A DNA stretch of 64,000 nt, from positions 61,102-125,101 of IMG/VR virus record IMGVR_UViG_3300005563_000030; one strand, 5' to 3'. The position numbers were made by a program, and so were the translations under genes. The notes beneath the pieces are model-generated. The model did no database searches and had not been told where the DNA came from. It worked only from the letters and a program-made list of their open reading frames with translations. Shown here piece by piece: positions 3,072-21,511 of this stretch (position 1 is the first letter of the stretch; each line of letters begins with the position of its first letter). Source of the DNA: a virus.

Positions 3072-3075
3072 AAAA

Positions 3076-3113
3076 AGTTAATGGCAGGCAGGTATTAGCA
3101 CCCACCTGCCATT
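3076..3113 (-). terminator. Intrinsic terminator-like hairpin
   Basis: AATGGCAGG...CCTGCCATT inverted repeat downstream of 3136-5022. Confidence 0.55.
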
Positions 3114-3135
3114 TTATTAAAGATGAATAATGGTA

Positions 3136-5022
3136 TTAGTCTAAGTCTATCTCTACATCATTACCAACACTTTCAGCGTAAGTAACAAGAGCTTGTTGTA
3201 AAGCTCCACCAGAACCTTCTGGTACGTAGATAGCCCAATGATAAGAGTCAGTGTAAGTTTGTGACCATCCACCTACCTTATAAGAGAAGTCAAACTCAAT
3301 AGTAAACTGATCGTAGTAAGTTTGAGGGTTAGTTTGAAGAGCATAACCTTCAGCTTCACGTACAGCAGGATCTACTGATCTTTCTTCTAAGAAGTAGGAT
3401 AGAGATTTCTTTTCTTCATCACGAACACGAGCACCAACACCTTGAGGATATTTAACACTCTGTATTTCGCTTACTGGCCATCTATTCTCACAAGGACTAG
3501 CGTTGTAGTCAGCGTTGTATTCAGAAACTTGTAAGTGAATAGTATCAGCTTCATAAGGGAAATAGTCATAAGTACAATCTCCAGTGATACGATTTACAAA
3601 TGCTGTTTCGATTAACACACCAGCTTGGATATTTGTAGCAGGAGTTACTGCTGCTTCAACCCATTGAGCATTTCCAAAAGAAGGAATTGGTGCATAAACC
3701 AGTTCATCTACAGCACAATCTACAGCAGCAGGAGCAGAAAGGATTGTAGTAGTGTATTGGTGAATACAATCTACTGGACCATCAGCTTCTTGTGTAATTG
3801 TAAGATCAGGATAGTAAGCCTGTAATTCGGCAAGACGAGAAGTACCACAAACTGTATCTTGTAGAGTGATATGATATGTTTTAGGGAAAGCAAACAGATC
3901 ACCTACGTCAGACCATGCAGTAGTAGTTGGAGTAGTTAATACACAACGACCTTTAGCAGCACCTAAGAATTGAATACTATCATTAGCACCTATTGCAGCT
4001 TGGTTAGCAGTATTAGATATTAAGATGTAAGTTGATAAACCATTAGGAGCATCACGTAATACACGAGTTGTACTTTCACCAGCAGCAGAGATACCGTAGG
4101 CAGTGCTCACAGCGGTTAAGGCAGTACCATCACCTGCGTCAGCACGTACCAGTACGTAAATATAACCAGCAGCATTAGAAGTGTAACCAGCAGGACAAGT
4201 ACCGCAATCATTGATTACGAACAATCCGGCATTAGTGAAGTTAGCAGGAGCACCACCAGTTTTGATAATCTGATAAGTACTGATGATACCATCACGAGAA
4301 ATACGTGTTACACTTTGTCCAACATACTGTACTTGTACAGCAGCCAGAGAAGCATCGTCACCGTTGTCAGCGATAGCTAAGTTGTAAACGTTGTAAGTAG
4401 TAGCACCAGAAGTGTCCAGAGCTGAACTTAACACCTTACGAGCACGGAATAGTTGACCACCACCAGCGCTCCATTTAGGATCGTTGTTGATCTTCTCAAC
4501 CAGAATGTCAGCCAGAACTGAAGGATCTACGTCTGCACAAGAATCTCCACCACACTCATCGCAGCAACCTGTGTCGATACGATATTGACGGATGAAACCT
4601 TGATTGTTATAAAGTTTGTCAATTGGGTTACCTGTTGCTTTAACATACACTGTACGAACTTCACCGCAACGAGCAGATAAAGTTTTAGTTGTGTCAATAC
4701 CATCGAAACCTACAGCTACAACTTGGTTCTGACCACGAGAAGCTGATTTACGACGGATTTTCTTCAACAGTTTACCTTTAACCAACTTAGAAAGTTGATT
4801 AGTTTGTGGGATTCCAGCCATTAAAGGCAAGTGACTTACATCGGGCATCCCTTGACCGATGTAGAGTGCTTTGTTATTCGCATAAGTGGGAGCTGAAGTA
4901 GCTGCGTAGGTATTTCCATCGAAAATACCAACTTGGCCTACTGCGAGATCCACGGTTGTACCTGATGCGAGTAAGACAGGAGTGTTTGTTACAAACACGC
5001 GTCTAAACGATTGATTCTGCAT
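3136..5022 (-). CDS. Large virion protein (auxiliary capsid/decoration-like)
   Basis: 628 aa, A/T/G-rich, highly biased codons, three genes downstream of the MCP as in crAss-like gene order. Confidence 0.6.
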   Translation of the reverse strand: MQNQSFRRVFVTNTPVLLASGTTVDLAVGQVGIFDGNTYAATSAPTYANNKALYIGQGMPDVSHLPLMAGIPQTNQLSKLVKGKLLKKIRRKSASRGQNQVVAVGFDGIDTTKTLSARCGEVRTVYVKATGNPIDKLYNNQGFIRQYRIDTGCCDECGGDSCADVDPSVLADILVEKINNDPKWSAGGGQLFRARKVLSSALDTSGATTYNVYNLAIADNGDDASLAAVQVQYVGQSVTRISRDGIISTYQIIKTGGAPANFTNAGLFVINDCGTCPAGYTSNAAGYIYVLVRADAGDGTALTAVSTAYGISAAGESTTRVLRDAPNGLSTYILISNTANQAAIGANDSIQFLGAAKGRCVLTTPTTTAWSDVGDLFAFPKTYHITLQDTVCGTSRLAELQAYYPDLTITQEADGPVDCIHQYTTTILSAPAAVDCAVDELVYAPIPSFGNAQWVEAAVTPATNIQAGVLIETAFVNRITGDCTYDYFPYEADTIHLQVSEYNADYNASPCENRWPVSEIQSVKYPQGVGARVRDEEKKSLSYFLEERSVDPAVREAEGYALQTNPQTYYDQFTIEFDFSYKVGGWSQTYTDSYHWAIYVPEGSGGALQQALVTYAESVGNDVEIDLD

Positions 5023-5731: not shown

Positions 5732-6619
5732 TTATCCGAACATACGCTTCTCTTCCAGTTCTTCCTTAATAGAAGCGAATTCGTTGGCATTTTCTGGAGA
5801 ACTTAAGAACTTGATTACGTCCTTCATATTCTTACCATAAGTAGCATTACCACGTTGGTAATAGTTATCTCTAATACGGATTACGTGTTTAGCTACAGCT
5901 TCATCAATGATTAATTTGTATTGCAGTTCTTCAATTGTCTTAGAAGTCGCTTCATTGAATCTACGTAGAATAGTACCTTCCTTATCATTAGTAAGACTTT
6001 CTCTGAGTATATTATAAATGGCGTCAGCACTCATTGAGTCTTTCACCTTGGTACCATGGACATATTTACCAATTACTACCAGTTTATTTTTATTCTCAGC
6101 CATGTTGTACAATGCTGCAATAGCCTTGTCACGTTCCTTACTCTTAATCGCTTTTGAGCCTTCTTCTGTTTCAGATCTGTGAACATAGAACTTAGTATTA
6201 GCAAGATCAGGATTATTACGTGCATCCAGTTCAGGAGCAGCATAATCGTTAGCTAATAAAACGTAGTACTTTATACGATCTGTAGCAAGGTCAAAATTAA
6301 GACCAAGTTTATCTATAATCTTTATGTAGTATGTGTCCCAGTACTTGGAAGTAGCAGAAAGGTCTAAGTTTGTCAGACGTTCCAACTCTTGTCTAAGTTC
6401 AAGAATTTCTTCTTTACGTTCAGCACGTAATACTGGATCATTAATACGATTTACTGAGAGAGCATTTTCATCAAGACCTGTAACCCATCTACCATCAGGG
6501 GTACGACCGGGTTGCATGATTTCAAATGTAGTAGGAAATTTACTCCTATTATATTTATCCAATCCTATTGATTGGGCGCTTTGGTCAGGAGTTTGTTTCA
6601 CTTCAATTAATGTACTCAT
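5732..6619 (-). CDS. Conserved crAss-like protein downstream of MCP
   Basis: 295 aa, GRWVTGLDE..YW motif, position directly after capsid gene. Confidence 0.55.
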   Translation of the reverse strand: MSTLIEVKQTPDQSAQSIGLDKYNRSKFPTTFEIMQPGRTPDGRWVTGLDENALSVNRINDPVLRAERKEEILELRQELERLTNLDLSATSKYWDTYYIKIIDKLGLNFDLATDRIKYYVLLANDYAAPELDARNNPDLANTKFYVHRSETEEGSKAIKSKERDKAIAALYNMAENKNKLVVIGKYVHGTKVKDSMSADAIYNILRESLTNDKEGTILRRFNEATSKTIEELQYKLIIDEAVAKHVIRIRDNYYQRGNATYGKNMKDVIKFLSSPENANEFASIKEELEEKRMFG

Positions 6620-12498: not shown

Positions 12499-14586
12499 TT
12501 ACATTCTTGTTCCTAATGTGCGCATAGCATGTTGACTAGCTGCAAAAGGACTAGTTGATTTAGCAAATCCTGACATTGTCATAGCAAACGGAGAACTTAA
12601 GATTGGATTCTTTCTTTGATTGTCAGGTTTCTCAGGTTCTTTAATATTTATTATCGGATAATATTTATCAAGATGTCTAGCATAAGCCAGAGCGTGGCGG
12701 AAAGCCACAATGCGGTCGTAGTTACCTTCTTCAGGGTTGTATTTTATAATTTCTTGAAGTAATACAGGATCAAGAATACGAGTTACACCTAATTTATATA
12801 TAGGTTCTCTTGTATCAGGGTGTGTACCCACTTGAATCTGTTCTTTACAATACTCAATCATTAGCGACATACAGTAGTTAATGTTTGGTAGTGTTGGAGA
12901 TAATCCATATATTTTACCACCTTGGTTAGCTCTGGTGTTTGGATTAATCTCTTTTGCAATGTTAAATCCTTGACCTAACATGTGTCCTTTATTCTTACGC
13001 TCAAAGTATTGAATAAATGTACCCGCAGCGTTCTCTGGAAAGCAGACGGCATTATAATATTCTAGTAGCATTTCTACTTGTTCATGCCAATCATTCATTG
13101 AGTTTGGACGTGAAGCTAGCGCAGCAACAGGCATGTCTTGATAGGTTTCTCCAGCCACATCTGTCATACGTTTCCATAGAACAACTGTACCTAAAGAGTC
13201 TGACCAGTCGGAAATGTCATTGTTGTAAGGGTCAGCTCCCGCAATATACAAACCTCGTGGTGCATTTGAGATAGGCTCTTCCCATATAACCACTGGACAA
13301 TCTTTTCCGAGATTCCCTTTGGTTGGAAATTCACTGATGGGTCTGTCATGAGATACTGCATAACTAGTTCTAACTTTTCCAGCCGAATCTCTGAAGAATC
13401 TAACATATCTACCTGTAATATTATTTGCGTTTAAATAATCTAAGTGACTTCTAGCTGCTTCTATTGGGAATGGATTAATTGCATTAGATAAGAAACATTC
13501 TGCTGGAGTAAGTGGATAATACATTATCAACTTTTGGTACTCCACTTTATCAGGGTCTTTAGATTTCTCTTCGCGTTCTTTTAGAATGAGAGCCTTAGCT
13601 TTCTCCTTATCAGAAACCATCATAGGGATCTGATCTAAGTTAGGAGTAGCCCAGTCTATCTTCCCTTCTTTTCTGAGATAATCACCAAGTGTAGTGAGAT
13701 ATTTACAGTCAATACGATATAATCCTGACATGAAAATAGCTGTCTCTCGTCCTGTCTCAGGATCAGTTACAGCTAATAAGTTGTTTGCACTAGGATTAAA
13801 GAAGAAACGTTCAGCATCAGCTCCTTTATCAAAGCTACCACCGGTTCCGAAAAGAAGAGGTACACATCTCCATCCGAACTTGGACTTAAATGCTGGTTTA
13901 GCAGCTTCAAATGATTGAGCAAAAGCAAATTTACCAACTTCATCGGTAGCATAGGCTTTCGCAGTAACACCCGCTGGACCTTCTGTTTTGTTACCTTCTG
14001 ATACGTTACGAACAATTAAGTAAGACCAAACATGGTCATCACCACCTTTAGCTTTGAACCCTAAGCGGGTCATGTTCTTCTTAGTATCTTTATCTAGCTT
14101 TGGAATTTGTAATCCTTTCCAAAGATTCTTAATACCAAAATCAATCTTATCACGGATAAGTTGTAAGTCATCATCATTACCACCCACCACTACATTCTGT
14201 GTGTGTTCAAAGAGTTCAGCATGATAGCCCATATAAGAAGCCATAATCTCACTCTTTCCAAACTGACGCACTCCAATGTGCATATATCCTTTCTTCTCAA
14301 CACGACATTGTTCAAGATATTGACCTACTTCCCACTCATTATCTCTACAGGAAGCGAGCATTTTCTTTCTCTGTATATTACCATACTCATCCTCAACGTC
14401 ATCACGAATATTCCAATGGTTTAAATGCCAATAGAGCCACCCCGATATATCTACATTATCGAGAGTGACTCCACCCATACACTTGTCTATTTCCCATTGA
14501 ACTAGTTCTTCAAATTCAGGAGTACCTTCTACCGGAAGACTTTCCATCCTTGAAAAGAAGTCATTAATAGAATTAATCTTCAGCAT
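12499..14586 (-). CDS. terL: Terminase large subunit
   Basis: 695 aa; Walker A-like RQFGKS, Walker B DEVGK, GTGG, nuclease YIAGADPY and NYDRIVA motifs. Confidence 0.9.
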   Translation of the reverse strand: MLKINSINDFFSRMESLPVEGTPEFEELVQWEIDKCMGGVTLDNVDISGWLYWHLNHWNIRDDVEDEYGNIQRKKMLASCRDNEWEVGQYLEQCRVEKKGYMHIGVRQFGKSEIMASYMGYHAELFEHTQNVVVGGNDDDLQLIRDKIDFGIKNLWKGLQIPKLDKDTKKNMTRLGFKAKGGDDHVWSYLIVRNVSEGNKTEGPAGVTAKAYATDEVGKFAFAQSFEAAKPAFKSKFGWRCVPLLFGTGGSFDKGADAERFFFNPSANNLLAVTDPETGRETAIFMSGLYRIDCKYLTTLGDYLRKEGKIDWATPNLDQIPMMVSDKEKAKALILKEREEKSKDPDKVEYQKLIMYYPLTPAECFLSNAINPFPIEAARSHLDYLNANNITGRYVRFFRDSAGKVRTSYAVSHDRPISEFPTKGNLGKDCPVVIWEEPISNAPRGLYIAGADPYNNDISDWSDSLGTVVLWKRMTDVAGETYQDMPVAALASRPNSMNDWHEQVEMLLEYYNAVCFPENAAGTFIQYFERKNKGHMLGQGFNIAKEINPNTRANQGGKIYGLSPTLPNINYCMSLMIEYCKEQIQVGTHPDTREPIYKLGVTRILDPVLLQEIIKYNPEEGNYDRIVAFRHALAYARHLDKYYPIINIKEPEKPDNQRKNPILSSPFAMTMSGFAKSTSPFAASQHAMRTLGTRM

Positions 14587-14899
14587 TATTTCTCATTCTA
14601 TGAGGCACATCTCCACCACCACGTACTTCTTTTATGGCAGCAGCTTCTTTCTCACGAAGTTTTTCTACTACCTCGCACATAGCAAGGTATTCCTTCATGG
14701 TTTCACGTAGTGATTTTTGAATAGCCTCTTTAGTTTGTACTACAGCGTAATAAGCTCCACCATTTTTAGTTTTCATTAATTCCTTACGATCCTCTACTTC
14801 ATTGTAGGGGTTATCTAGTAAGTATTGTTTCCAGCGAGCTAATTGTTCTTCTGCAAGTTCTAGCTCTGCTGATATGTATAAGTTTTTCTTAACAGCCAT
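14573..14899 (-). CDS. Possible terminase small subunit
   Basis: 108 aa helical protein ending ...EVRGGG, overlapping terL start. Confidence 0.4.
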   Translation of the reverse strand: MAVKKNLYISAELELAEEQLARWKQYLLDNPYNEVEDRKELMKTKNGGAYYAVVQTKEAIQKSLRETMKEYLAMCEVVEKLREKEAAAIKEVRGGGDVPHRMRNNAED

Positions 14900-15215
14900 A
14901 TGGTTTTACTTCAGTTACGCGATAATATTTAGTATTAAATTTCCTTACTTTGACTATTTTTCCATTATAGTAGTAGTCTTCTACCCAGTTTTTATTTTTC
15001 ACAAAAAGTGGATCTGGTTGTTTTGGGAAGATTTGATAGTCTGTATTGATTTCATCTTTTTCAATTTCCATATCTTCTATATCTGAATAGAAGGAAGGAT
15101 CTTCAAGACGCATATCGTATTCGATAGCAAACTTCCCAATAGCCATCATAAACCCAGCATAGATAAAGTCATTATCCGTATAACTAGGTTTACACATTTC
15201 ATGTATCTCTTCCAT
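14889..15215 (-). CDS. Hypothetical protein
   Basis: 108 aa ORF. Confidence 0.55.
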   Translation of the reverse strand: MEEIHEMCKPSYTDNDFIYAGFMMAIGKFAIEYDMRLEDPSFYSDIEDMEIEKDEINTDYQIFPKQPDPLFVKNKNWVEDYYYNGKIVKVRKFNTKYYRVTEVKPYGC

Positions 15216-15228
15216 TGGTTTTTATTTG

Positions 15229-15300
15229 AGCACATAGGAAGAATCGAACTTCCGCATAACTGTTTTGCAGACAGCGACCTTACCACTTGGCTATACGTGC
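15229..15300 (-). tRNA. tRNA-Cys(GCA)
   Basis: GCACGTA/TATGTGC acceptor, loop CT-GCA-AA, GTTCGATTC T-loop, U73. Confidence 0.9.
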
Positions 15301-15659
15301 TTATTTACGAATAGCTTTTTCTTAATAACATAATCGAATATCTTCTCATTTATAAATCCTGATAAGAAGGCTCTAGCTTCTCCATCATTTACATCCTTAT
15401 CTTCTAATATGTAATCTACTAAATGAGAAATTTCATGAGTTATTATATTTACATTTAAACTCTCTTCTGAAAAGAAGACATAGTAGGTATGAAAATTATT
15501 TGGATTTATAGCCATTCCATGAAGATCATGGTCATCTTCTATATTAAATTCCCATTTCTCTCGCTTACTATATGAGTTTATCTTCTTACGAATGTCTTTG
15601 TCTATTATGACAATACACTTAAGTTGATAAACTTCTATCGGAATCACTAGTCTGAGCAT
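15291..15659 (-). CDS. Small HExxH metallopeptidase-like protein
   Basis: 122 aa with ITHEISH...EARAF. Confidence 0.55.
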   Translation of the reverse strand: MLRLVIPIEVYQLKCIVIIDKDIRKKINSYSKREKWEFNIEDDHDLHGMAINPNNFHTYYVFFSEESLNVNIITHEISHLVDYILEDKDVNDGEARAFLSGFINEKIFDYVIKKKLFVNKHV

Positions 15660-15826
15660 CTTCTGATAAGTCTAAGATCATGAATTTATAACTTTCCAAA
15701 GGATACTTTGATTCTTCTTTAGGTTCACCAAATATAGCCTTTCTTGATTCAGGACTCATAAGTTCATAGAATAACCCCATAATTGCAGCCTGATCGTATA
15801 TCTCTTCTTCCATGTAATTAGTTAAG

Positions 15827-15900
15827 TTGCGGGAGCGGGGATCGAACCCGCGTCATTTAGCTTATGAGACTAAGCTGGAACCTCTCCAGTCCACCCCGCA
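15827..15900 (-). tRNA. tRNA-Met(CAT), initiator-like acceptor stem
   Basis: TGCGGGG/TCCCGCA acceptor, loop CT-CAT-AA, GTTCGATCC T-loop; lacks the three G-C anticodon-stem pairs of canonical fMet. Confidence 0.85.
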
Positions 15901-16432
15901 ATTTTTAATCTTCTAAATATTCTCTCCAAGTCTTCGGTTTGTATCTATCTATTGCTTCATCATTACGTTTCTTGAACTCCTCAGCAGAAATAATACCTAG
16001 CCGAAATCCCCATTCAACATTAGTGAGATACATATCTCTCATTAACATCTTCTCTTTGTTCTTTATGTGTGCTTGGGTCATCATAAAGAGTATATCGTAC
16101 TCCACTTTCTTTTCCAATTTCTTCTTGTAACATCATTTCTAAGAACCTCATTGCGTCATTGTACCTCGCAGTGAGTTGTTCAATAATATAATTCTCAGAC
16201 ATACCTAAAGCTCTCCAATTATCAATTTCGTCTTGTAGGTAGTGGTTAACAATATTATTCATCTTCCTTAATATTATCTACTAACTCGTTCTCTAATTCA
16301 TCGCGATATTTCTCAAACTTCCTCAAAAGCTCTGTATCACTCCAGCCGTAACATCCTGTTTGTGGGCGAAGAATATGTACCATATGTTGCGCAATGGTAT
16401 ACTGAGGAAACAATTCCACGATCTCTGCAAAG

Positions 16433-16888
16433 TTATGGAATATCTGTGACTTTGTCTGAATCTGTTTGTTGCTCATTTTCTTGGTTTTTAAATGCGAACC
16501 ATTTAGGTTCCAGTGTTATATTGTTTTTTGTGTTGTACTCTTTTACGTTTGGTTTTGCACATCCGCATTCTGTTCCCGGATTGCAACATGATAATCCACA
16601 ATCTGATGATAATGATGATGTTTTTCTATTAATTGAACATCCACACATAACGCAATGCTCATCAATTCTGTTTGTTATATACCCATCACTAACTGCATTC
16701 GAGCTGCTGAACGGGCACGTCGAGCATATCAGTCTTCTCCTCACTATCTCCTGTTGTTCTTCCTCTGGTAACATCCCCAACTCGTTCTTCACTTGTGTTA
16801 TTGTCGCTTCCAAGATTGCTGGTGCGTTGCTCACTATTGTCGGCAGCAACGTCACGTACTCTACTAATCCTTTTAGTGTAATTTTCAT
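16433..16888 (-). CDS. Cys-rich (zinc-binding) hypothetical protein
   Basis: RRLICSTCP...HCVMCGC...KW motif. Confidence 0.65.
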   Translation of the reverse strand: MKITLKGLVEYVTLLPTIVSNAPAILEATITQVKNELGMLPEEEQQEIVRRRLICSTCPFSSSNAVSDGYITNRIDEHCVMCGCSINRKTSSLSSDCGLSCCNPGTECGCAKPNVKEYNTKNNITLEPKWFAFKNQENEQQTDSDKVTDIP

Positions 16889-17222
16889 AGAACTGTTTAG
16901 CTAATATATTTCTTTGTTTAAGAGCTTTTCTTAGCTTATCATAGTTTAATTCCAGAAGCAATTCAGTTGTTGATTGCTTATATCTGGTAGATTTTCGGAT
17001 ATTCCTTATCTTTCTAATAAGAGTAATAATCATCTGGTCTACTTTACGCTTAGAAACTGTTATAGTTCCAATATGCTTAATAGAAACAGATGTATAGTCC
17101 ATAGATGATAGAGCAGCTCTCACGCCAACCTTCCAGAAAAAAGCATTTACATCTTCTACAAGGTCAGGATCAAGGTTATTCTCTCTAGCTACCAACTTAG
17201 AAACTATATGAATATCCTTCAT
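16689..17222 (-). CDS. Possible HU/IHF-like DNA-binding protein
   Basis: Basic protein with VSIKHIGTITV strand motif; position upstream of terminase as in crAss-like phages. Confidence 0.4.
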   Translation of the reverse strand: MKDIHIVSKLVARENNLDPDLVEDVNAFFWKVGVRAALSSMDYTSVSIKHIGTITVSKRKVDQMIITLIRKIRNIRKSTRYKQSTTELLLELNYDKLRKALKQRNILAKQFYENYTKRISRVRDVAADNSEQRTSNLGSDNNTSEERVGDVTRGRTTGDSEEKTDMLDVPVQQLECS

Positions 17223-17563
17223 TAATTATTATCAATTTTAATAAGAACTCCCATAGTTGGAGTAAGCCCAAAGTCTAACTCTTTTCTAAGTGAGTATTCT
17301 TTACTGTCTACATTTCTAATCAGCATTCCAAATTTCTTCAACTTAGATAGAGTATTTTTAAGACTATCATCAGACTTTAGTATACCTGCATTTAGTATAA
17401 GGTCTTTAGTTTTTCTATTGATCTTATAAACCATAAAATATGCAAGTACTGTTAACTCTGTGTCTGAGAGCTTAACATTCATAAGTAAACAGAAGATATT
17501 AATTAATACCTTAGCTTGTTCTACTTTACTATTGGTTTTCTTTTTTATCTTTACTAGTTGCAT
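17222..17563 (-). CDS. Hypothetical protein (possible winged-helix DNA binder)
   Basis: Likely ATG start at 17563 just after promoter 17572-17603; LSDTELTVL...NTLSKLKKFGML. Confidence 0.55.
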   Translation of the reverse strand: MQLVKIKKKTNSKVEQAKVLINIFCLLMNVKLSDTELTVLAYFMVYKINRKTKDLILNAGILKSDDSLKNTLSKLKKFGMLIRNVDSKEYSLRKELDFGLTPTMGVLIKIDNN

Positions 17564-17571
17564 ATTCAGTA

Positions 17572-17603
17572 CAAATATAGAGATATTATTGCAATTTACC
17601 AAA
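17572..17603 (-). promoter_or_regulatory. Bacteroidota primary-sigma promoter
   Basis: TTTG-N20-TATATTTG. Confidence 0.75.
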
Positions 17604-17774
17604 TTTATTTTATCTCCATCCCTTCTTCTCCAGAACTTTCTATTAGCTGCTCTCGCGAACAACGAATAGTAGGTGAGTCACTGAGCGTTACACTTCTGCT
17701 GCTCCGCGAAGTACGAAGCTACGAAAAATTTCTGACATTTTCATCAATTTCGTAAACTATTTTTTAAAATAAAT

Positions 17775-17797
17775 AAAAAAGCCCCAATTAAGGGGCT
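17775..17797 (-). terminator. Intrinsic terminator closing the tRNA array
   Basis: AGCCCC-TTAATT-GGGGCTTTTTT immediately after tRNA-Trp. Confidence 0.8.
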
Positions 17798-17801
17798 ATT
17801 G

Positions 17802-17873
17802 CACGGGATGATGGTCTCGAACCACCGACACAGGTTTTGGAGACTAGCATTTTACCAACTAAACTAATCCCGT
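17802..17873 (-). tRNA. tRNA-Trp(CCA)
   Basis: ACGGGAT/ATCCCGT acceptor, loop CT-CCA-AA, GTTCGAGAC. Confidence 0.88.
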
Positions 17874-17874
17874 A

Positions 17875-17970
17875 GGTAGCCTGCGTAATAAGATACTTTT
17901 CGCGTAGTCCCAGGTTTACGCTTGAAGGGTCAGGTAAATCCCACATATCTCCTATACTATTCTCAGGCTC
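17875..17970 (-). ncRNA. Unclassified structured RNA inside tRNA operon
   Basis: AGCCTG/CAGGCT closing stem, AGATAT/GTATCT, GTGG/CTAC, TTTAC/GTAAA; ends ...CAGGCT-ACC. Confidence 0.45.
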
Positions 17971-18041
17971 TGGGTGAAGTGCAGGATCGAACTGCTTCTC
18001 CAGCTTCACATGCTAGCGCTTTTCCAGTAAGCTATCTTCAC
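17971..18041 (-). tRNA. tRNA-His(GTG)
   Basis: CTAGC-AT-GTG-AA-GCTGG anticodon arm, GTTCGATCC, ends CTTCACCCA; acceptor/T junction slightly irregular. Confidence 0.85.
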
Positions 18042-18043
18042 AG

Positions 18044-18114
18044 ATGCTCGTGATCGAATCGGACGACCTTCTCCGAGGTCAAAACTCGGTGTGATACCAA
18101 TATACCAACGAGCA
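18044..18114 (-). tRNA. tRNA-Gln(TTG)
   Basis: TGCTCGT/ACGAGCA acceptor, CCGAG-TT-TTG-AC-CTCGG, variant T-loop GTCCGATTC. Confidence 0.85.
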
Positions 18115-18122
18115 TTATATAG

Positions 18123-18195
18123 TGGGGTTCTCTGGTTACGATCCAGATCCTCCAGTTTTTCAGACTGGTGCTTCTACCAAGTTAGCTTGAACTCC
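18123..18195 (-). tRNA. tRNA-Phe(GAA)
   Basis: CCAGT-CT-GAA-AA-ACTGG, variant T-loop GATCGTAAC. Confidence 0.88.
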
Positions 18196-18200
18196 AAATG

Positions 18201-18274
18201 AGCCTGTGGTCGGAGTTGAACCGACAACCTTTCCCTTACAAGGGGACTGCTCCGCCAATTGAGCTACAGCAGGC
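18201..18274 (-). tRNA. tRNA-Thr(TGT)
   Basis: Loop CT-TGT-AA, GTTCAACTC; one bulged base in acceptor stem. Confidence 0.88.
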
Positions 18275-18280
18275 ATTGTG

Positions 18281-18375
18281 CTAATGGGGTACGACTTGAA
18301 CGACAAGCGGAGGTTAATCCCTGATTCCGCGCCGGATAGACAATCCGGTATGTCTGCCAATTTCACCACCCATTA
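18281..18375 (-). tRNA. Atypical tRNA with Asp anticodon (GTC) and long variable arm
   Basis: TAATGGG/CCCATTA-G acceptor, Leu-like D-arm TGGTGAAATTGGCAGACA, CCGGA-TT-GTC-TA-TCCGG, about 26-nt variable arm, GTTCAAGTC T-loop. Confidence 0.7.
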
Positions 18376-18380
18376 GTGTG

Positions 18381-18452
18381 CGGGAACGGAAGGGGTCGAA
18401 CCTTCAACCTACCGGTTAACAGCCGGTTGCTCTACCATTGAGCTACATTCCC
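18381..18452 (-). tRNA. tRNA-Asn(GTT)
   Basis: ACCGG-CT-GTT-AA-CCGGT, canonical D and T arms. Confidence 0.93.
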
Positions 18453-18504
18453 TGGTCGGCTCCGATTTTTTATACAGAACGTTGCCGAAGTAAACTGTTG
18501 ATCG

Positions 18505-18580
18505 CCGACTATCACGGATTTGAACCGAGGATCTCCTCTTAGACAGAGAGGCAGGGACGACCAGACTCCCCTAATAGTCG
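18505..18580 (-). tRNA. tRNA-Asp(GTC)
   Basis: CGACTAT/ATAGTCG-G acceptor, CCTCT-CT-GTC-TA-AGAGG, GTTCAAATC. Confidence 0.88.
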
Positions 18581-18621
18581 AGGTGAAGGTTCCTTCCTGG
18601 AGTATACCTACAACTATGCAG

Positions 18622-18696
18622 TCAGGGTAGCTGGATTTGAACCAGCGAACACGTGCTTCCAAGGCACGCCCATATAGCCATCTGTGGAACACCCTG
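18622..18696 (-). tRNA. tRNA-Pro(TGG)
   Basis: CAGGGTG/TACCCTG-A acceptor, CGTGC-CT-TGG-AA-GCACG. Confidence 0.88.
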
Positions 18697-18701
18697 ATAA
18701 T

Positions 18702-18727
18702 AAAAAACCCCCGGTGAAAACCGAGGG
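18702..18727 (-). terminator. Attenuator terminator of tRNA operon A
   Basis: CCCTCGG-TTTTCA-CCGGGGG-TTTTTT, 5 nt upstream of tRNA-Pro. Confidence 0.85.
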
Positions 18728-18757
18728 AAACTTTCAATTATGACAAATTTTCTTGAA

Positions 18758-18844
18758 TTACTTATTTTGGCATAATGTTCCCTCATCGAGATCTTGTTGA
18801 TCCGGTGTGAAATTATTAAACGTATTATGCCAATTGTTAATCAT
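18758..18844 (-). CDS. Attenuator leader peptide A (MINNWHNTFNNFTPDQQDLDEGTLCQNK)
   Basis: 28-aa ORF between promoter and terminator; codons 3-18 encode only N,W,H,T,F,P,D,Q, the amino acids of the downstream tRNAs. Confidence 0.85.
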   Translation of the reverse strand: MINNWHNTFNNFTPDQQDLDEGTLCQNK

Positions 18845-18848
18845 AAAA

Positions 18849-18880
18849 CAAAGATAAGTAAAATATTTGAAACTACCAAA
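18849..18880 (-). promoter_or_regulatory. Promoter of tRNA operon A
   Basis: TTTG-N20-TATCTTTG, 4 nt before leader ATG. Confidence 0.8.
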
Positions 18881-18895
18881 TATTCTTAAAAGAAG

Positions 18896-18979
18896 TCGAT
18901 GCAGAGAGATTTGAACTCCCATAGCCGAATGGCGACAGTTTTACAGACTGCTGATTTCAACCCACTTACCATTACATCG
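18896..18979 (-). tRNA. tRNA-Tyr(GTA), C1-G72
   Basis: CGATGTA/TGCATCG-A acceptor, loop CT-GTA-AA, long variable arm GCCATTCGGC. Confidence 0.85.
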
Positions 18980-19048
18980 AGATAGCTGTCTATTCCAGCT
19001 TGTCAAACCCTTTTTATTTCATACTACGTCGCCGAGATACACGACCTG

Positions 19049-19137
19049 CGGAAAGAAGAGGAACCGACCCCCACCCGATTTAACGAGACCTAGTTTTCAA
19101 GACTAGTCGGCGCTCCAATGCACCTGCTTTTCTTTCC
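19049..19137 (-). tRNA. tRNA-Ser(TGA)
   Basis: GGAAAGA/TCTTTCC-G acceptor, loop CT-TGA-AA, long variable arm, variant T-loop GGTCGGTTC. Confidence 0.82.
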
Positions 19138-19141
19138 AGAG

Positions 19142-19227
19142 CGGAGAACAGTGGCCCTGATCCACATACGTTCGATGACGTACCACCTCTTTAGCAGAGA
19201 GGGCATACCCTAGTATGTCTATTCTCC
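19142..19227 (-). tRNA. tRNA-Ser(GCT)
   Basis: GGAGAAT/GTTCTCC-G acceptor, CCTCT-CT-GCT-AA-AGAGG, long variable arm, highly variant T-loop GATCAGGGC. Confidence 0.78.
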
Positions 19228-19232
19228 AAATG

Positions 19233-19306
19233 TACTCCTAGTCAGATTTGAACTGACACTTGACAGATTTTAAGTCTGTTGACTCTCCCTGTTGGTCTAT
19301 AGGAGC
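19233..19306 (-). tRNA. tRNA-Leu(TAA), short variable loop
   Basis: ACAGA-CT-TAA-AA-TCTGT, GTTCAAATC, A73. Confidence 0.88.
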
Positions 19307-19382
19307 TGGTAGCTACGGTGAGATTTGAACTCACACTAAATAGTTTCTAAGACTATTGCCTCTCCCATTGGGCTACGTAGCC
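19307..19382 (-). tRNA. tRNA-Leu(TAG), short variable loop, encoded CCA
   Basis: ATAGT-CT-TAG-AA-ACTAT, GTTCAAATC, ends ACCA. Confidence 0.9.
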
Positions 19383-19389
19383 ATAAAAT

Positions 19390-19420
19390 AAAAAACCCCC
19401 ACTTATGAATAAGCAGGGGG
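19390..19420 (-). terminator. Attenuator terminator of tRNA operon B
   Basis: CCCCCTGCTTA-TTCA-TAAGTGGGGG-TTTTTT just upstream of tRNA-Leu(TAG). Confidence 0.85.
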
Positions 19421-19446
19421 TAAACTAAAAACGGAAAAAAGTATCT

Positions 19447-19530
19447 TTATATTCCGACAATAAGCCCCCCTGCCACAGGATAACTGAGACTAGATAAATA
19501 GGAGAGTAAATATTGCTTCACGAATTTCAT
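19447..19530 (-). CDS. Attenuator leader peptide B (MKFVKQYLLSYLSSLSYPVAGGLIVGI)
   Basis: 27-aa ORF; codons 7-17 encode only Y,L,S, the amino acids of the downstream tRNAs. Confidence 0.85.
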   Translation of the reverse strand: MKFVKQYLLSYLSSLSYPVAGGLIVGI

Positions 19531-19534
19531 AACA

Positions 19535-19566
19535 CGAAGATAGGAAAACTTTTTCAATTTTCCAAA
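19535..19566 (-). promoter_or_regulatory. Promoter of tRNA operon B
   Basis: TTTG-N20-TATCTTCG, 4 nt before leader ATG. Confidence 0.75.
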
Positions 19567-19700
19567 TTTTCATTTATTGAATAAGTACGATCACATAAAT
19601 CGCAGTAATAAACTGGTCCTAGATTTTCTCCGAACACTCCAATCTCATCTATAATTATGAATTGTTCATTACATTCAGGACATCTGTTTTCTGATTTCAT
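19554..19700 (-). CDS. Small zinc-ribbon protein (48 aa)
   Basis: MKSENRCPEC...YYCDLCDRTY; two CxxC motifs; ATG right after tRNA-Ala. Confidence 0.6.
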   Translation of the reverse strand: MKSENRCPECNEQFIIIDEIGVFGENLGPVYYCDLCDRTYSINENLEN

Positions 19701-19702
19701 AG

Positions 19703-19772
19703 TGGACACAGTGGGAATCGAACCCAAAAGTTCTCCTTGCAAGGGAGACTGCCTACCGTTGGCATCTGGCCC
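19703..19772 (-). tRNA. tRNA-Ala(TGC)
   Basis: TCTCC-CT-TGC-AA-GGAGA, G3.U70, GTTCGATTC. Confidence 0.85.
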
Positions 19773-19777
19773 AGAAG

Positions 19778-19850
19778 TAGGAAGTCTGAGAATCGAACTC
19801 AGGAGTCCACTTTGTAAGAGTGGCATATTAAACCTCTGTATGAACTTCCT
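19778..19850 (-). tRNA. tRNA-Val(TAC)
   Basis: AGGAAGT/ACTTCCT-A acceptor, CCACT-CT-TAC-AA-AGTGG. Confidence 0.87.
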
Positions 19851-19853
19851 ATG

Positions 19854-19926
19854 TCGCTGAGGGAAGAGTCGAACTTCCAGTCTTACACGTATCAGGCGTC
19901 TGCGTTAACCATTACGCTACTCAGCG
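19854..19926 (-). tRNA. tRNA-Ile(GAT)
   Basis: CGCTGAG/CTCAGCG-A acceptor, loop CT-GAT-AC. Confidence 0.87.
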
Positions 19927-19928
19927 GG

Positions 19929-20000
19929 TTGGCTCTAAGGGGGTTGAACCCTTATCCTTCTCGTTATGAGCGAGCTGCTCCACCTTTGAGCTAAGAGCCG
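19929..20000 (-). tRNA. tRNA with CAT anticodon, probably Ile2 (lysidine) rather than Met
   Basis: CTCG-CT-CAT-AA-CGAG; sits next to Ile(GAT); the operon leader has an ATA codon and no internal ATG. Confidence 0.75.
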
Positions 20001-20005
20001 ATATG

Positions 20006-20077
20006 TACTCTCGAAGGGTTTCGATCCCTCTTCTACACCTTGAAAGGGTGTCATCCTAGCCACTAGACGACGAGAGC
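20006..20077 (-). tRNA. tRNA-Glu(TTC)
   Basis: ACACC-CT-TTC-AA-GGTGT, Glu-type D-arm TCGTCTAGTGGCTAGGA, T-loop GATCGAAAC. Confidence 0.88.
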
Positions 20078-20126
20078 TGGTGTACAGACTATCACTGACC
20101 TTGGTAACTGACTTTCACAGATTTTG

Positions 20127-20197
20127 TGCGCTACTGGGGAGTCGAACCCCACCCCTCTGATTGGAAGTCAGATAGACTACCGAAATCCTTGTAACGC
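20127..20197 (-). tRNA. tRNA-Gly(TCC)
   Basis: GCG start, TCTGA-CT-TCC-AA-TCAGA, GTTCGACTC. Confidence 0.87.
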
Positions 20198-20204
20198 ATA
20201 TAAG

Positions 20205-20277
20205 AAGAGCTGGAGGGATTCAAACCCCCGACGTTCTGTTTAGAAAACAGACATTCTGTTCCCTGAATTACAGCTCT
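20205..20277 (-). tRNA. tRNA-Arg(TCT)
   Basis: AGAGCTG/CAGCTCT acceptor, TCTGT-TT-TCT-AA-ACAGA. Confidence 0.85.
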
Positions 20278-20278
20278 G

Positions 20279-20352
20279 AGGACTAGGAGCGAGTCGAACG
20301 CTCATGTTCCCGCTTCGTAGGCGGGAGCTCTATCCAGTTAAGCTACCAGTCC
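20279..20352 (-). tRNA. tRNA-Arg(ACG)
   Basis: CCCGC-CT-ACG-AA-GCGGG, canonical D and T arms. Confidence 0.92.
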
Positions 20353-20361
20353 TTATTTATG

Positions 20362-20432
20362 TACCCCCGCACGGTAACGATCCGTGTTCTACTGGTTAAA
20401 AGCCAGTAGCTTCACCTTAAAGCTTCGAGGGT
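20362..20432 (-). tRNA. tRNA-Lys(TTT)
   Basis: ACTGG-CT-TTT-AA-CCAGT, variant T-loop GATCGTTAC. Confidence 0.87.
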
Positions 20433-20434
20433 AT

Positions 20435-20474
20435 AAAAACCAAAACCCCCAAGCTTCTTTAAGGCTCAGGGGTT
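20435..20474 (-). terminator. Attenuator terminator of tRNA operon C
   Basis: AACCCCTGAGC-CTTAAAGAA-GCTTGGGGGTT-TTGGTTTTT immediately upstream of tRNA-Lys. Confidence 0.8.
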
Positions 20475-20503
20475 CGATGTTATGACACACATTAATTAAG
20501 TCA

Positions 20504-20581
20504 TTAGCAAATAGAACCACCTGAGCCACATTTGACAATGCGCTCTGCTCCTCTACCCGCTATAATGACTAATAAACTCAT
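20504..20581 (-). CDS. Attenuator leader peptide C (MSLLVIIAGRGAERIVKCGSGGSIC)
   Basis: 25-aa ORF; codons 5-17 encode only V,I,A,G,R,E,K, the amino acids of the downstream tRNAs. Confidence 0.85.
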   Translation of the reverse strand: MSLLVIIAGRGAERIVKCGSGGSIC

Positions 20582-20598
20582 TTCTTTAAATTATAATA

Positions 20599-20630
20599 CA
20601 AATATACGAAAACTTTTTTACAATTCCAAA
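20599..20630 (-). promoter_or_regulatory. Promoter of tRNA operon C
   Basis: TTTG-N20-TATATTTG, 17 nt before leader ATG. Confidence 0.8.
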
Positions 20631-21016
20631 TCTTCTTCATCACCTTCTATACTTTCGTCTTCAGGAATGTCATCTTCATAATCCAAAGGTGTGCAATCCA
20701 TAATCTGTACACCCATTTGTTCCATATACAATTCCATGAAATCTGAGAAACCTGCTTTTACTATTAAAGAACTCTCAGCCTTTCTGAAATGAATTGTGAC
20801 ATGATCCTTTTCTTTAGCTCTATTAAAGTGATGAATATCTTTTAAATCAAATACTACAGGACCATATTCATGCACAATATCCATCATAATCATGCTATCT
20901 TCTGGACCTTCATCTCCATTAATGAGACGGTTTAATTCTGCTTCTTCCCGGTTAGCTTGACTATTACGAGGAGCAAGCTCCGACCATCTCGCTAACATTT
21001 TTACAATTGTACTCAT
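20618..21016 (-). CDS. Hypothetical acidic protein
   Basis: 132 aa ORF. Confidence 0.65.
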   Translation of the reverse strand: MSTIVKMLARWSELAPRNSQANREEAELNRLINGDEGPEDSMIMMDIVHEYGPVVFDLKDIHHFNRAKEKDHVTIHFRKAESSLIVKAGFSDFMELYMEQMGVQIMDCTPLDYEDDIPEDESIEGDEEDLEL

Positions 21017-21276
21017 TTTTCTAAGTTTAATATTTTTGAAAGATCACCATCTGTTTTCTCTATAATCTCAATTAATGTATTAATATTTGATGAAGAAATA
21101 GGCTCTTTCTTTCCATTAAAGTAATCGAGGTAATCCTCTCTAGTAAACGCACACCATTTATGGGTGTATATATTATAGTGGAATAACCACTTATAAAGGT
21201 TTGTATTATTCATATTTTGCTTATTCATATGATATTCAAGTAGTTCTAAAGACTTTCTATAAATATTGTAATTCAT
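21013..21276 (-). CDS. Hypothetical protein
   Basis: WLFHYNIYTHKWCAFTR-containing ORF; start placed after promoter 21280-21311. Confidence 0.55.
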   Translation of the reverse strand: MNYNIYRKSLELLEYHMNKQNMNNTNLYKWLFHYNIYTHKWCAFTREDYLDYFNGKKEPISSSNINTLIEIIEKTDGDLSKILNLEK

Positions 21277-21279
21277 ATA

Positions 21280-21311
21280 CAAATGTACACAGAATAGTTG
21301 AAAACTCCAAA
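21280..21311 (-). promoter_or_regulatory. Bacteroidota-type promoter
   Basis: TTTG-N20-TACATTTG. Confidence 0.7.
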
Positions 21312-21511
21312 TAAAAAAGGAAGTATTTCTACTTCCTACTGTACTATTAATAAATACATATCTTTTACACACTGTTCAGTGAGGGTGAATGGGTGGCAAT
21401 CCCCCACTCTAGTAAGTCTAAATAGCTTTCTCTCTTTGTCATAATCCTGTATTAGATAGTGTGTGTAATTGTCATCAATTACTACATCATTAATTCCTGC
21501 CTTTAGTTCAT

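Follow-up and report, generated by a model that had tools for sequence, protein, structure and literature searches.

Layout of unit C

The locus lies in a window of 64,000 nt (positions 61,102 to 125,101 of the viral record IMGVR_UViG_3300005563_000030), which is the whole stretch of DNA analysed here. Four sequencing runs are listed as containing this stretch; all four are of DNA, and one may be its source. Unit C occupies positions 20630-20435 on the minus strand and consists, in this order, of a predicted promoter, a leader ORF, an antiterminator arm and a putative terminator, after which a block of tRNA genes begins. Block C (19703-20432, minus strand) contains genes for Lys(ttt), Arg(acg), Arg(tct), Gly(tcc), Glu(ttc), a tRNA with the anticodon CAT, Ile(gat), Val(tac), and Ala(tgc). 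The first eight, from Lys to Val(tac), were called by ARAGORN, which placed tRNA-Lys(ttt) at 20432-20361 on the minus strand. Ala(tgc), at 19772-19703, was found only by Rfam (38.4 bits) and by a relaxed ARAGORN search. The CAT tRNA is probably Ile2: the codon ATA is present in 5/5 C-type leaders, and the related genome L008 has Ile(tat) directly before Ile(gat), at the place where another relative, L004, carries the CAT tRNA. The searches of the adjoining genes against Pfam and PHROGs gave nothing above the curated cut-offs and a single PHROG match of unassigned function.

The predicted promoter (20599-20630, minus strand) is composed of TTTG at 20630-20627, a 20-nt spacer and the -7 box TATATTTG at 20606-20599. 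The stop codon of the preceding gene (20620-20618) lies within this promoter, and the leader ATG is located 37 nt past the end of that gene and 17 nt downstream of the -7 box. The motif of TTTG and -7 box is presumably the Bacteroidota sigma-A consensus. The window contains 10 copies of it in the form TTTG-N19-21-TANNTTTG, where 1.37 would be expected, and none of the 100 shuffles reached 10 or more; the enriched set includes both the unit C site and the promoter of sister unit A. A scan of the sigma-70 type revealed no enrichment (17 promoters found vs 19.6 expected). A 17-nt motif common to units C and B was rejected as an element of its own, being part of the promoter and, with mismatches, not enriched (15 occurrences vs 11.35 expected).

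The leader ORF (20504-20581, minus strand) runs from the ATG at 20581 to the TAA at 20506-20504, and its 25 codons read MSLLVIIAGRGAERIVKCGSGGSIC. Codons 5-17 (20531-20569, minus strand; V I I A G R G A E R I V K) are GTC ATT ATA GCG GGT AGA GGA GCA GAG CGC ATT GTC AAA, just as the first-pass annotation had listed them. These 13 consecutive codons correspond to the amino acids of the nine downstream tRNAs. Among the 17 codons ahead of the antiterminator arm, 13 are cognate to block C as compared with 3 to block B and none to block A. The earlier claim of at least one cognate control codon per tRNA stands for 8/9 tRNAs under standard wobble; it extends to 9/9 only if Val(UAC) reads GTC, which is not a standard match for it. 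More generally, the family-box codons in the leaders (GTC, GGT, CTC, TCC) exceed the set that a U34 tRNA reads under standard wobble.

As a null, we used 17-codon windows taken from open frames of the phage itself that span 100 codons or more. Of 40,267 such windows, only 5 combined coverage of all nine tRNAs with 13 or more cognate codons. When the 125-kb genome was translated in six frames, only one run restricted to the residues K/R/G/E/I/V/A was longer than VIIAGRGAERIVK.

The predicted intrinsic terminator (20435-20475, minus strand) has its 5' arm, designated region 3, at 20475-20464, a loop at 20463-20455 and its 3' arm at 20454-20443. Its 12 bp and 9-nt loop give a predicted energy of -17.6 kcal/mol. 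The U-tract is indeed interrupted, as had been described: the tail reads T GG TTTTT to position 20435, and the last T lies 3 nt ahead of tRNA-Lys. A simple terminator scan passed over this hairpin, as it allowed loops of no more than 8 nt and the loop here has 9.

The putative antiterminator 5' arm, region 2 (20513-20527, minus strand), is situated within the ORF at codons 19-23. The 13-bp pairing of GGCTCAGGTGGTTC (20527-20514) with GAACCCCTGAGCC (20475-20463), which had been read from the letters, was reproduced by RNAduplex at -21.0 kcal/mol. The dinucleotide shuffles of the leader averaged -9.9 kcal/mol (z -5.1) and none of 300 was as low. When arms were swapped between units, the arm of unit C proved to be the best partner of its own terminator arm.

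A protector (1:2) hairpin is predicted at 20491-20577 (minus strand), where the control-codon region pairs with the antiterminator arm and the sequence following it. It appears in the minimum free energy fold of leader C and of the nascent RNA (-30.9 kcal/mol). The probability that the arm is paired upstream was 0.66, whereas the shuffles averaged 0.51, a difference that is not significant for unit C (fraction 0.30). Across the 15 homologous units introduced below, this pairing exceeded the shuffled mean in 15/15, yet the fraction was at most 0.05 in only 4/15.

Sister units and related genomes

Two sister units of the same anatomy were found in the window, both on the minus strand. Unit B (19395-19568) has a promoter, an ORF at 19530-19447 (MKFVKQYLLSYLSSLSYPVAGGLIVGI), an arm at 19475-19465 and a terminator at 19421-19395, and precedes tRNAs Leu, Leu, Ser, Ser, and Tyr. 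Unit A (18708-18880) has a promoter, an ORF at 18844-18758 (MINNWHNTFNNFTPDQQDLDEGTLCQNK), an arm at 18786-18779 and a terminator at 18727-18708, and precedes tRNAs Pro, Asp, Asn, Asp-like, Thr, Phe, Gln, His, and Trp. Each leader matches its own block: 11 of 17 codons are cognate in leader B (vs 3 and 3 for the other blocks) and 16 of 18 in leader A (vs 1 and 1). With windows drawn from the phage's own open frames as for leader C, 0/40,267 (B) and 0/40,104 (A) reached full coverage together with the observed count. When the whole 125-kb genome is translated in six frames, no run of the respective amino-acid sets is longer than NNWHNTFNNFTPDQQD and YLLSYLSSLSY.

A megablast search of positions 19300-21100 against phage records returned only 56-nt matches to tRNA-Glu in two Xanthomonas phages. 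The relatives were obtained by scanning viral contigs for TerL; the single-sequence scan yielded one and the alignment-based scans the rest. All three units are kept in four related genomes (L003, L005, L004, and L008), so that with the window a set of 15 units, three from each, could be compared. A cultured relative, Leptolyngbya phage Lbo-JY46 (PP438436.1), carries the same three units.

A hairpin with a T run behind it is present in 15/15 units. All 15 also have an arm that is complementary to the 5' side of the terminator, always inside the ORF and starting 46-61 nt after the A of the ATG. The promoter box with its 20-nt spacer was found by script in 14/15 units and by eye in L003_B. The pairing between arm and terminator was stronger than 95% of shuffles in 13/15 units, and the within-genome swap test identified the unit's own leader as the best partner of its terminator arm in 13/15. 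The arm sequences vary between genomes in step with the terminator arm. In the A-type terminator, 4/8 pairs have changed on both sides and 97% of cells remain paired. Pairs were counted only for this terminator, since MAFFT alignments of the leaders lose the antiterminator register, and the antiterminator was therefore tested alignment-free by the duplex and swap calculations.

The agreement between codons and tRNAs extends over the whole set: of the 111 block tRNAs in the 15 units, 111 have a control codon under the loose U34 rule and 97 under strict wobble. It should be noted that the block lists were partly completed by homology or by reading loops by eye, as for Lys and Gln in L005 and for Val in L004, which ARAGORN called Cys(aca). 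The control codons follow tRNA genes between blocks. Block 1 of L004 and L008 holds the tRNAs for Asn, Asp, and Cys, and the N, D, and C codons are found in leader 1; in the same two genomes, Arg(ACG) belongs to block 3 and CGT occurs in leader 3. Meanwhile, some codons are present in leaders whose block does not have the tRNA. Block C of L003 is without Val and Ala tRNAs, and its leader still contains one V and one A; block 2 of L004 is without Tyr and Ser(gct), and its leader still contains TAT and AGT.

The leader peptide sequence is conserved only as amino-acid classes. Between the B units of the window and of L005 (W_B and L005_B), all three differences in the first 63 nt are synonymous. 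These observations bear on another possible reading of the 150-nt transcript, in which it is no translated leader and represents a small structured RNA or the remnant of a tRNA gene, processed along with the array. Its fold is very stable (-50.3 kcal/mol), ARAGORN at the 85% threshold calls a 'tRNA-Leu(caa)' at 20570-20498, and GGCTCAGG...CCTGAGCC resembles an acceptor stem. At its default threshold ARAGORN is silent over leader C, however, and Rfam gave no tRNA match in 20433-20640 at E up to 1; a tRNA or tRNA pseudogene at this place was rejected on these grounds. An element acting as RNA only would leave unexplained both the open frame, kept in 15/15 units with block-specific amino acids, and the purely synonymous changes between W_B and L005_B. 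We consider this explanation highly improbable.

The codon rule was also seen in eight further metagenome relatives with other block make-ups, in which coverage is not always full. The pipeline used for them examined 32 gaps of at least 110 nt before a tRNA and detected 13 terminator-like hairpins, of which 12 had an ORF containing an arm. In L039, 22/23 codons were cognate and 13/13 tRNAs were covered. The corresponding values were 18/22 codons with 11/11 tRNAs in L034 (12/15 with 9/10 in its second unit) and 18/23 codons with 9/9 tRNAs in L033 (10/14 with 6/7 in its second unit). Over 11 metagenome units, the own leader covers 79/84 tRNAs and the other leader of the same locus 6/62; this count leaves out the L024 unit preceding a lone tRNA-Thr at 18413, beyond TerL. 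The 45-codon ORF of the latter contains no Thr, and the unit was thus counted as a miss. Among the alternative ORFs, those at L024 6865 and L033 6304 scored 0/6 and 3/15, and the other two were in-frame variants. For L021, the pipeline settled on an arm far away and reported no ORF; inspection by eye revealed a leader MRMTNHTTNQPNPQDCGR... ahead of Pro, Asp, Asn, Thr, Gln, and His, with AGGGCTTG facing CAAGCCCT. Strict promoter boxes precede only part of the leaders in the metagenome relatives.

Ribosome position and the choice between hairpins

In a ribosome-mask model of unit C, the probability of the terminator is 0.90 without a ribosome. When the A site is placed on codons 7-14 it drops to 0.01-0.56, and from codon 15 up to the stop it returns to 0.90. 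This pattern persists over 3' footprints of +8 to +16 nt. No relief was predicted for V5, I6, I15, V16, and K17, so that, according to this model, unit C would sense Ile2, Ala, Gly, Arg(UCU), Glu, and Arg(ACG) and would be blind to Val, to Lys and largely to Ile(GAT). The emphasis placed earlier on tRNA-Lys(UUU), as a common target of defence nucleases and the first gene transcribed, finds no support in this model: AAA is the last control codon, only 3 nt before the antiterminator arm, and with AAA in the A site the probability of the terminator is 0.90.

Applied to all units, the equilibrium model predicts switching in only 9/15. In W_A, L003_B, L004_1, L004_3, L008_1, and L008_3 the probability of the terminator is at least 0.53 at any ribosome position, and for W_B the model predicts antitermination when no ribosome is present.

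The dominance of the terminator at equilibrium in 6/15 units is what might be expected of a plain terminator or insulator for upstream transcription, with fortuitous codons in the ORF and with tRNAs arising from leaky read-through or other promoters. The distance of only 37 nt from the end of the upstream gene to the leader ATG also speaks for such a role. Nevertheless, we hold it to be very unlikely: a promoter motif lies between the upstream gene and the leader in 15/15 units, the codon match has a null of at most 5/40,267 per unit and recurs in 15 units and in 12 more units from the further relatives, the codons track tRNAs that switch block, and the antiterminator arm co-varies with the terminator.

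The same 6/15 units, which fail to switch in the equilibrium model, would be accommodated by a translated decoding sensor that has no 2:3 / 3:4 switch and acts through Rho, RNA decay, the peptide itself or an sRNA in trans. To our knowledge, the termination and translation signals of Bacteroidota are poorly characterized, which leaves some room for this alternative. Attenuator-derived sRNAs exist, as described for rnTrpL (PMC7968998). We give the alternative little chance, as the complementarity between arm and terminator is significant, fixed in position and co-varying, and as the peptide is conserved only in its amino-acid classes.

The reading of unit C as an attenuator, put forward in the first-pass annotation, gains support from an anatomy of the trp/his type and from the recurrence of the codon match in two sister units, in 12 homologous units and in relatives with other block make-ups, as well as from codons that move together with the tRNAs. 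Unit C is very probably a ribosome-mediated (leader-peptide) transcription attenuator, the output of which would be a phage tRNA block and not an amino-acid operon.

Known leaders and the proposed circuit

Among the amino-acid operons of enterobacteria, multivalent leader-peptide attenuators are known in thrL (Thr, Ile), ilvL of ilvGMEDA (Leu, Val, Ile), and ivbL (Val, Leu). Unit C shares with them a promoter-proximal short ORF whose mixed control codons would report several charged tRNAs together, mutually exclusive protector, antiterminator and terminator hairpins (predicted here), and a terminator placed before the first structural gene. In those systems the output is biosynthetic enzymes, whereas here it is tRNA genes; their leaders repeat the codons of two or three amino acids, whereas the present ones hold an inventory of up to 9-13 tRNAs with one or two codons each. 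Unlike them, unit C is phage-borne, has a promoter of the Bacteroidota type and is one of three parallel units that partition the tRNA set.

The single-amino-acid leaders trpL, hisL, leuL, and pheL resemble unit C in the four-region logic and in a stop codon set so that a finishing ribosome masks region 2. They differ from it in having runs of one amino acid, the supply of which is sensed for a biosynthetic operon. None of the 28 matches listed at E up to 1 was to a curated Rfam amino-acid leader (Trp, His, Leu, Thr, Phe). The T-box riboswitch (RF00230) likewise uses an antiterminator and a terminator to couple tRNA status to read-through. It binds uncharged tRNA directly through a specifier codon and without translation, whereas the proposed sensor of unit C is a translating ribosome. 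A T-box at this locus was rejected, as RF00230 had no match in 14500-21500 at E up to 1.

In Anabaena PCC 7120, the abstracts of PMC8421152 and PMC10272220 describe the trn long tRNA operon as stress-induced and silent until translation is impaired, and the latter places it under the transcriptional repressor TrcR. The proposed circuit resembles it in that an accessory tRNA array would be silent and come on when translation is impaired. 'Attenuat' and 'leader peptide' have no occurrences in the main texts of the two papers. The Anabaena array is bacterial, whereas unit C is carried by a phage.

For unit C, we propose the following sequence of events. Transcription would start from the promoter at 20630-20599, and the 25-codon leader would be translated. 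If decoding through the middle of VIIAGRGAERIVK is fast, the ribosome would reach region 2 (20527-20513) and the stop codon. With region 2 masked, region 3 would be free to form the 3:4 terminator, and RNA polymerase would halt at 20442-20435, 3 nt before tRNA-Lys. If the charged tRNA for one control codon is scarce, the ribosome would stall on region 1; region 2 could then leave the protector hairpin and pair with region 3, the terminator would not form, and the nine tRNA genes would be transcribed. Since the products decode their own leader, the circuit would amount to negative feedback on decoding capacity.

On the evidence of the sequence, the phage probably makes the tRNAs of block C only when ribosomes slow at the matching codons, and we infer that the window carries three such circuits, one per tRNA block. 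We likewise infer from the DNA that the leader is translated and that the hairpin terminates transcription, as well as which way the switch works and what triggers it physiologically. The trigger could be host tRNA loss, cleavage by a defence nuclease, the codon demand of the phage or amino-acid shortage, causes between which the device itself cannot distinguish.

Phage tRNA genes are usually seen as constitutive cargo serving codon adaptation or escape from tRNA-cleaving defences. A literature search, with subscription journals and supplementary files outside its scope, found no published leader-peptide attenuation of tRNA genes. On balance, we lean towards the view that this family of phages, with genomes of ~115-126 kb and Bacteroidota-type promoters, operates all of its accessory tRNAs as a homeostat of decoding capacity. 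Inventory leaders would act block by block, a single shortage would open only the matching block, and the new tRNAs would close it again. Such a shortage might be caused by host shut-off, anticodon nucleases or phage codon demand.

If this holds, the leader codons would predict tRNA identity (for example, CAT as Ile2) and co-evolve with gene order. The content of a leader would indicate which tRNAs are sensed, and the same design might serve elsewhere as a codon-specific reporter of tRNA supply. Such leaders would also offer a route from sequence to the assignment of ambiguous tRNAs and to regulated tRNA blocks in metagenomes, and the cultured relative Lbo-JY46 provides a handle for testing. 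Classical attenuation would then extend to RNA genes and to viruses, where it would exert feedback control of decoding capacity.

A bounded tRNA region with three leaders

The record is 125,101 bases long, the window being its second half. The large terminase (TerL), encoded on the minus strand at 12499-14586, shares 44.6% identity with its counterpart in Leptolyngbya phage Lbo-JY46 and has more remote kinship to Cellulophaga phi17:2-like and crAss-like phages. ARAGORN placed 23 tRNA genes in 15228-20432, every one on the minus strand, and two additional genes came from Rfam (tRNA-Ala, 19772-19703) and from relaxed ARAGORN settings (Ser(tga), 19133-19048).

All features that the first-pass annotation had described for unit C, which precedes the Lys, Arg, Arg, Gly, Glu, CAT, Ile, Val and Ala tRNAs, are present in the sequence on the minus strand. 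Its predicted promoter consists of TTTG (20630-20627), a 20-nt spacer and TATATTTG (20606-20599). The leader ORF downstream (ATG at 20581, stop at 20506-20504) has 25 codons, MSLLVIIAGRGAERIVKCGSGGSIC, of which codons 5-17 are identical to those read at first pass. The antiterminator pairing of GGCTCAGGTGGTTC (20527-20514) with GAACCCCTGAGCC (20475-20463) was also borne out: its energy is -21.0 kcal/mol against a mean of -9.9 for dinucleotide shuffles of the leader, and 0 of 300 shuffles were as good. The 5' arm of the terminator is the same segment as the 3' partner of the antiterminator; this 12-bp hairpin (20475-20464 with 20454-20443, -17.6 kcal/mol) is followed by the tail T GG TTTTT, which ends at 20435, 3 nt short of tRNA-Lys. 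A tRNA-like RNA at 20570-20498 was rejected, being a relaxed ARAGORN call only, without Rfam support, and the Rfam search gave no match to a T-box or a curated leader family.

Units B and A, both downstream of C, are built in the same way. The leader of unit B (ATG at 19530, minus strand), MKFVKQYLLSYLSSLSYPVAGGLIVGI, precedes Leu, Leu, Ser, Ser and Tyr tRNAs, and that of unit A (ATG at 18844, minus strand), MINNWHNTFNNFTPDQQDLDEGTLCQNK, precedes Pro, Asp, Asn, an Asp-like class II tRNA, Thr, Phe, Gln, His and Trp. Directly after tRNA-Trp, a clean terminator (AGCCCC-TTAATT-GGGGCT then T5, 17780-17797, minus strand) closes the third block, so that the three units make up one bounded tRNA region. 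Outside these blocks, a tRNA with a CAT anticodon (15826-15900; anticodon uncertain in ARAGORN) and tRNA-Cys (15228-15300), both on the minus strand, lie among protein genes, and neither a leader nor a terminator was found ahead of either of them in the window; Met(cat) and Cys are arranged likewise near TerL in the related contigs L003 and L005.

Several smaller elements were seen within the region, all on the minus strand. The Asp-like tRNA (18280-18375, anticodon GTC in ARAGORN) is 96 nt long, adjoins a normal-sized tRNA-Asp (18504-18580) and may have a class II body or an insertion; in L003, an odd stretch resembling it separates Asn from Thr (~6280-6375). The gap of ~98 nt between tRNA-His and tRNA-Trp (17874-17971) gave no above-threshold tRNA or Rfam call; a weak SpF41 sRNA match there (E 0.39) overlaps tRNA-Trp. 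Between tRNA-Ala and promoter B lies an ORF of 48 codons (19554-19700) that contains two CxxC pairs; it has sub-threshold zinc-finger matches only and is absent at the corresponding place in L003 and L005.

Unit structure in related genomes

Scans guided by TerL recovered three related viral contigs that are distinct and bear tRNA arrays: L003, L005 (L007 being identical to it) and L008. Lbo-JY46 was added as a fourth relative. All four carry three units, which gives 15 units with the window. A hairpin with a T run is present in 15/15, as is a segment complementary to the terminator 5' arm, located inside the ORF just past the control codons and starting 46-61 nt from the A of the ATG. This arm is stronger than 95% of shuffles in 13/15, the exceptions being unit A of the window (0.06) and of L005 (0.21). 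The arm sequences vary between genomes in step with the terminator: GGCAGGGGG faces CCCCCTGC in unit B of the window, GGGAGCT faces AGCTCCC in unit 2 of L008 and CTGGGCT faces AGCCCAG in unit 3 of Lbo-JY46. When leaders were swapped within a genome, the own leader was the best partner of the terminator arm in 13 of the 15 units (not in units 1 and 2 of Lbo-JY46); across genomes within one unit type, it ranked first in 10/15. In the A-type terminator, four of the eight pairs have changes on both sides, and 97.4% of cells are paired.

The two-box promoter motif, which we take to be the Bacteroidota sigma-A consensus (-33 TTTG, -7 TAnnTTTG), occurs 10 times in the window versus 1.37 expected, a number reached by 0 of 100 shuffles, and lies on the coding strand in each half of the window. 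An ATG stands exactly 4 nt past the -7 box in 7/15 units, including those at 19530 and 18844 and units of L003, L005 and L008; this spacing suggests leaderless or nearly leaderless messages. The Leu/Ser/Tyr leader of L003 (4996-5122) has a 22-codon in-frame 5' extension starting 10 nt past the -7 box, and its translated length may be 42 codons, with the control run in the second half. In Lbo-JY46 (PP438436.1, 1788-6130), TTTG-N20-TAnnTTTG boxes, a motif typical of Bacteroidota, precede the leaders despite the cyanobacterial host record; either the motif is more widely used or the host record deserves re-examination. Block 1 of this phage contains an inserted homing endonuclease gene (3562-4389), which has a promoter-like box of its own, and an HNH-like ORF (2863-3255), adjoining a weakly scoring tRNA-Glu (4371-4444); it is thus split by mobile genes, yet has a single leader ahead.

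Leader codons and tRNA content

For the window leaders, cognate codons were counted from the start codon to the antiterminator arm. Leader C has 13/17 codons cognate to its own block, against 3 for block B and 0 for block A; leader B has 11/17, against 3 and 3 for the other two blocks, and leader A 16/18, against 1 and 1. When the entire genome was translated in six frames, leader A (16) and leader B (11) each held the longest run of their amino-acid set, and leader C (13) the second longest. Some 40,000 length-matched windows drawn from the phage's own open frames served as the null; 5 of them combined complete block coverage with the observed cognate count for C, and 0 did so for B or for A. 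These statistics and the co-variation of the arms exclude a plain terminator behind a chance ORF.

At first pass, every tRNA of block C was held to have a cognate control codon; under standard pairing this fails for Val(UAC), which GTC does not match, and it holds if U34 reads the whole family box. With the latter rule, 111/111 tRNAs of the 15 units have at least one control codon, and 97/111 with strict wobble; some block lists in this count were completed by homology or by our own reading (Lys and Gln in L005; Val in Lbo-JY46 in place of ARAGORN's Cys(aca)).

The codons also follow tRNAs that change places. In the window, L003 and L005, block A holds the Asn and Asp tRNAs and block C Arg(ACG), with N and D codons in leader A and CGC in leader C. 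In Lbo-JY46 and L008, it is block 1 that holds the tRNAs for Asn, Asp and Cys, and Arg(ACG) belongs to block 3; there, N, D and C codons occur in leader 1, with AGA as its only Arg codon, and leader 3 has CGT and a control run without N or D. Leader C of L003 keeps one V and one A codon, though its block lacks Val and Ala tRNAs, and leader 2 of Lbo-JY46 keeps TAT and AGT, though its block lacks Tyr and Ser(gct).

A metagenome scan added relatives with a different block make-up. The leader of L033, starting MKRNNWFNNAAAFTTTDCGKG, precedes Ala, Gly, Asp, Asn, Trp, Thr, Arg, Phe and Cys (18/23 codons cognate, 9/9 tRNAs covered); that of L034, starting MNKNLRPLSLHSYLQSEKG, precedes Pro, Gln, His, Arg, Leu, Leu, Ser, Ser, Tyr and Glu (12/15, 9/10); that of L039, starting MKRNWFNIIFTMFATRDCGKVGIY, precedes 13 tRNAs (22/23, 13/13). 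In 11 metagenome units, leaders cover 79/84 tRNAs of their own block versus 6/62 when the locus's other leader is used. By eye, L021 agrees with the rule; among these relatives, the L024 candidate ahead of a lone Thr does not fit it.

The predicted switch and its output

In the minimum free energy structure of leader C, a long hairpin (20577-20491) pairs the control codons (region 1) with the antiterminator arm in the ORF (region 2) and the following sequence, beside the terminator. A fast ribosome would mask region 2 and let the terminator form; one stalled on region 1 would leave region 2 free for the antiterminator, and the tRNA genes would be transcribed. A leader left untranslated would lead to termination.

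A ribosome footprint extending 15 nt upstream and 12 nt downstream of the first A-site base was masked, and the probability of the terminator stem was calculated over the ensemble. For unit C this probability is 0.90 without a ribosome, 0.01-0.56 when codons 7-14 (ATA, GCG, GGT, AGA, GGA, GCA, GAG, CGC) occupy the A site and 0.90 from codon 15 through the stop; the pattern is stable when the 3' footprint is varied from +8 to +16 nt and, within the model, is that of classical attenuation. In this crude equilibrium model, switching is seen in 9/15 units and six stay terminated; unit B of the window is antiterminated without a ribosome. The protector hairpin between regions 1 and 2 exceeds the shuffled mean in 15/15 units and is individually significant in only 4.

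The expected response to Lys stress did not appear in the model. In the run, Lys comes last, 3 nt ahead of region 2, and its codon gives no relief in the model; a ribosome awaiting Lys-tRNA would overlie part of the arm. Lys is the final control codon in the four other C-type leaders too; judging from these sequences, the placement is conserved. A link of unit C with defence nucleases is plausible, and the same response would be expected to amino-acid shortage or phage codon demand.

A full-text search, with supplements and subscription journals outside its scope, found no published case of tRNA genes controlled by a leader-peptide attenuator. The nearest printed parallel is the trn operon of Anabaena, which is induced by stress (PMC8421152, PMC10272220) and, according to the abstract of PMC10272220, controlled by the repressor TrcR; the words 'attenuat' and 'leader peptide' occur in neither main text. 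The attenuation mechanism itself is of a known kind. What appears to be new is the use of tRNA genes as its output, the multivalent leader written as an inventory and the occurrence of parallel units in a phage family.
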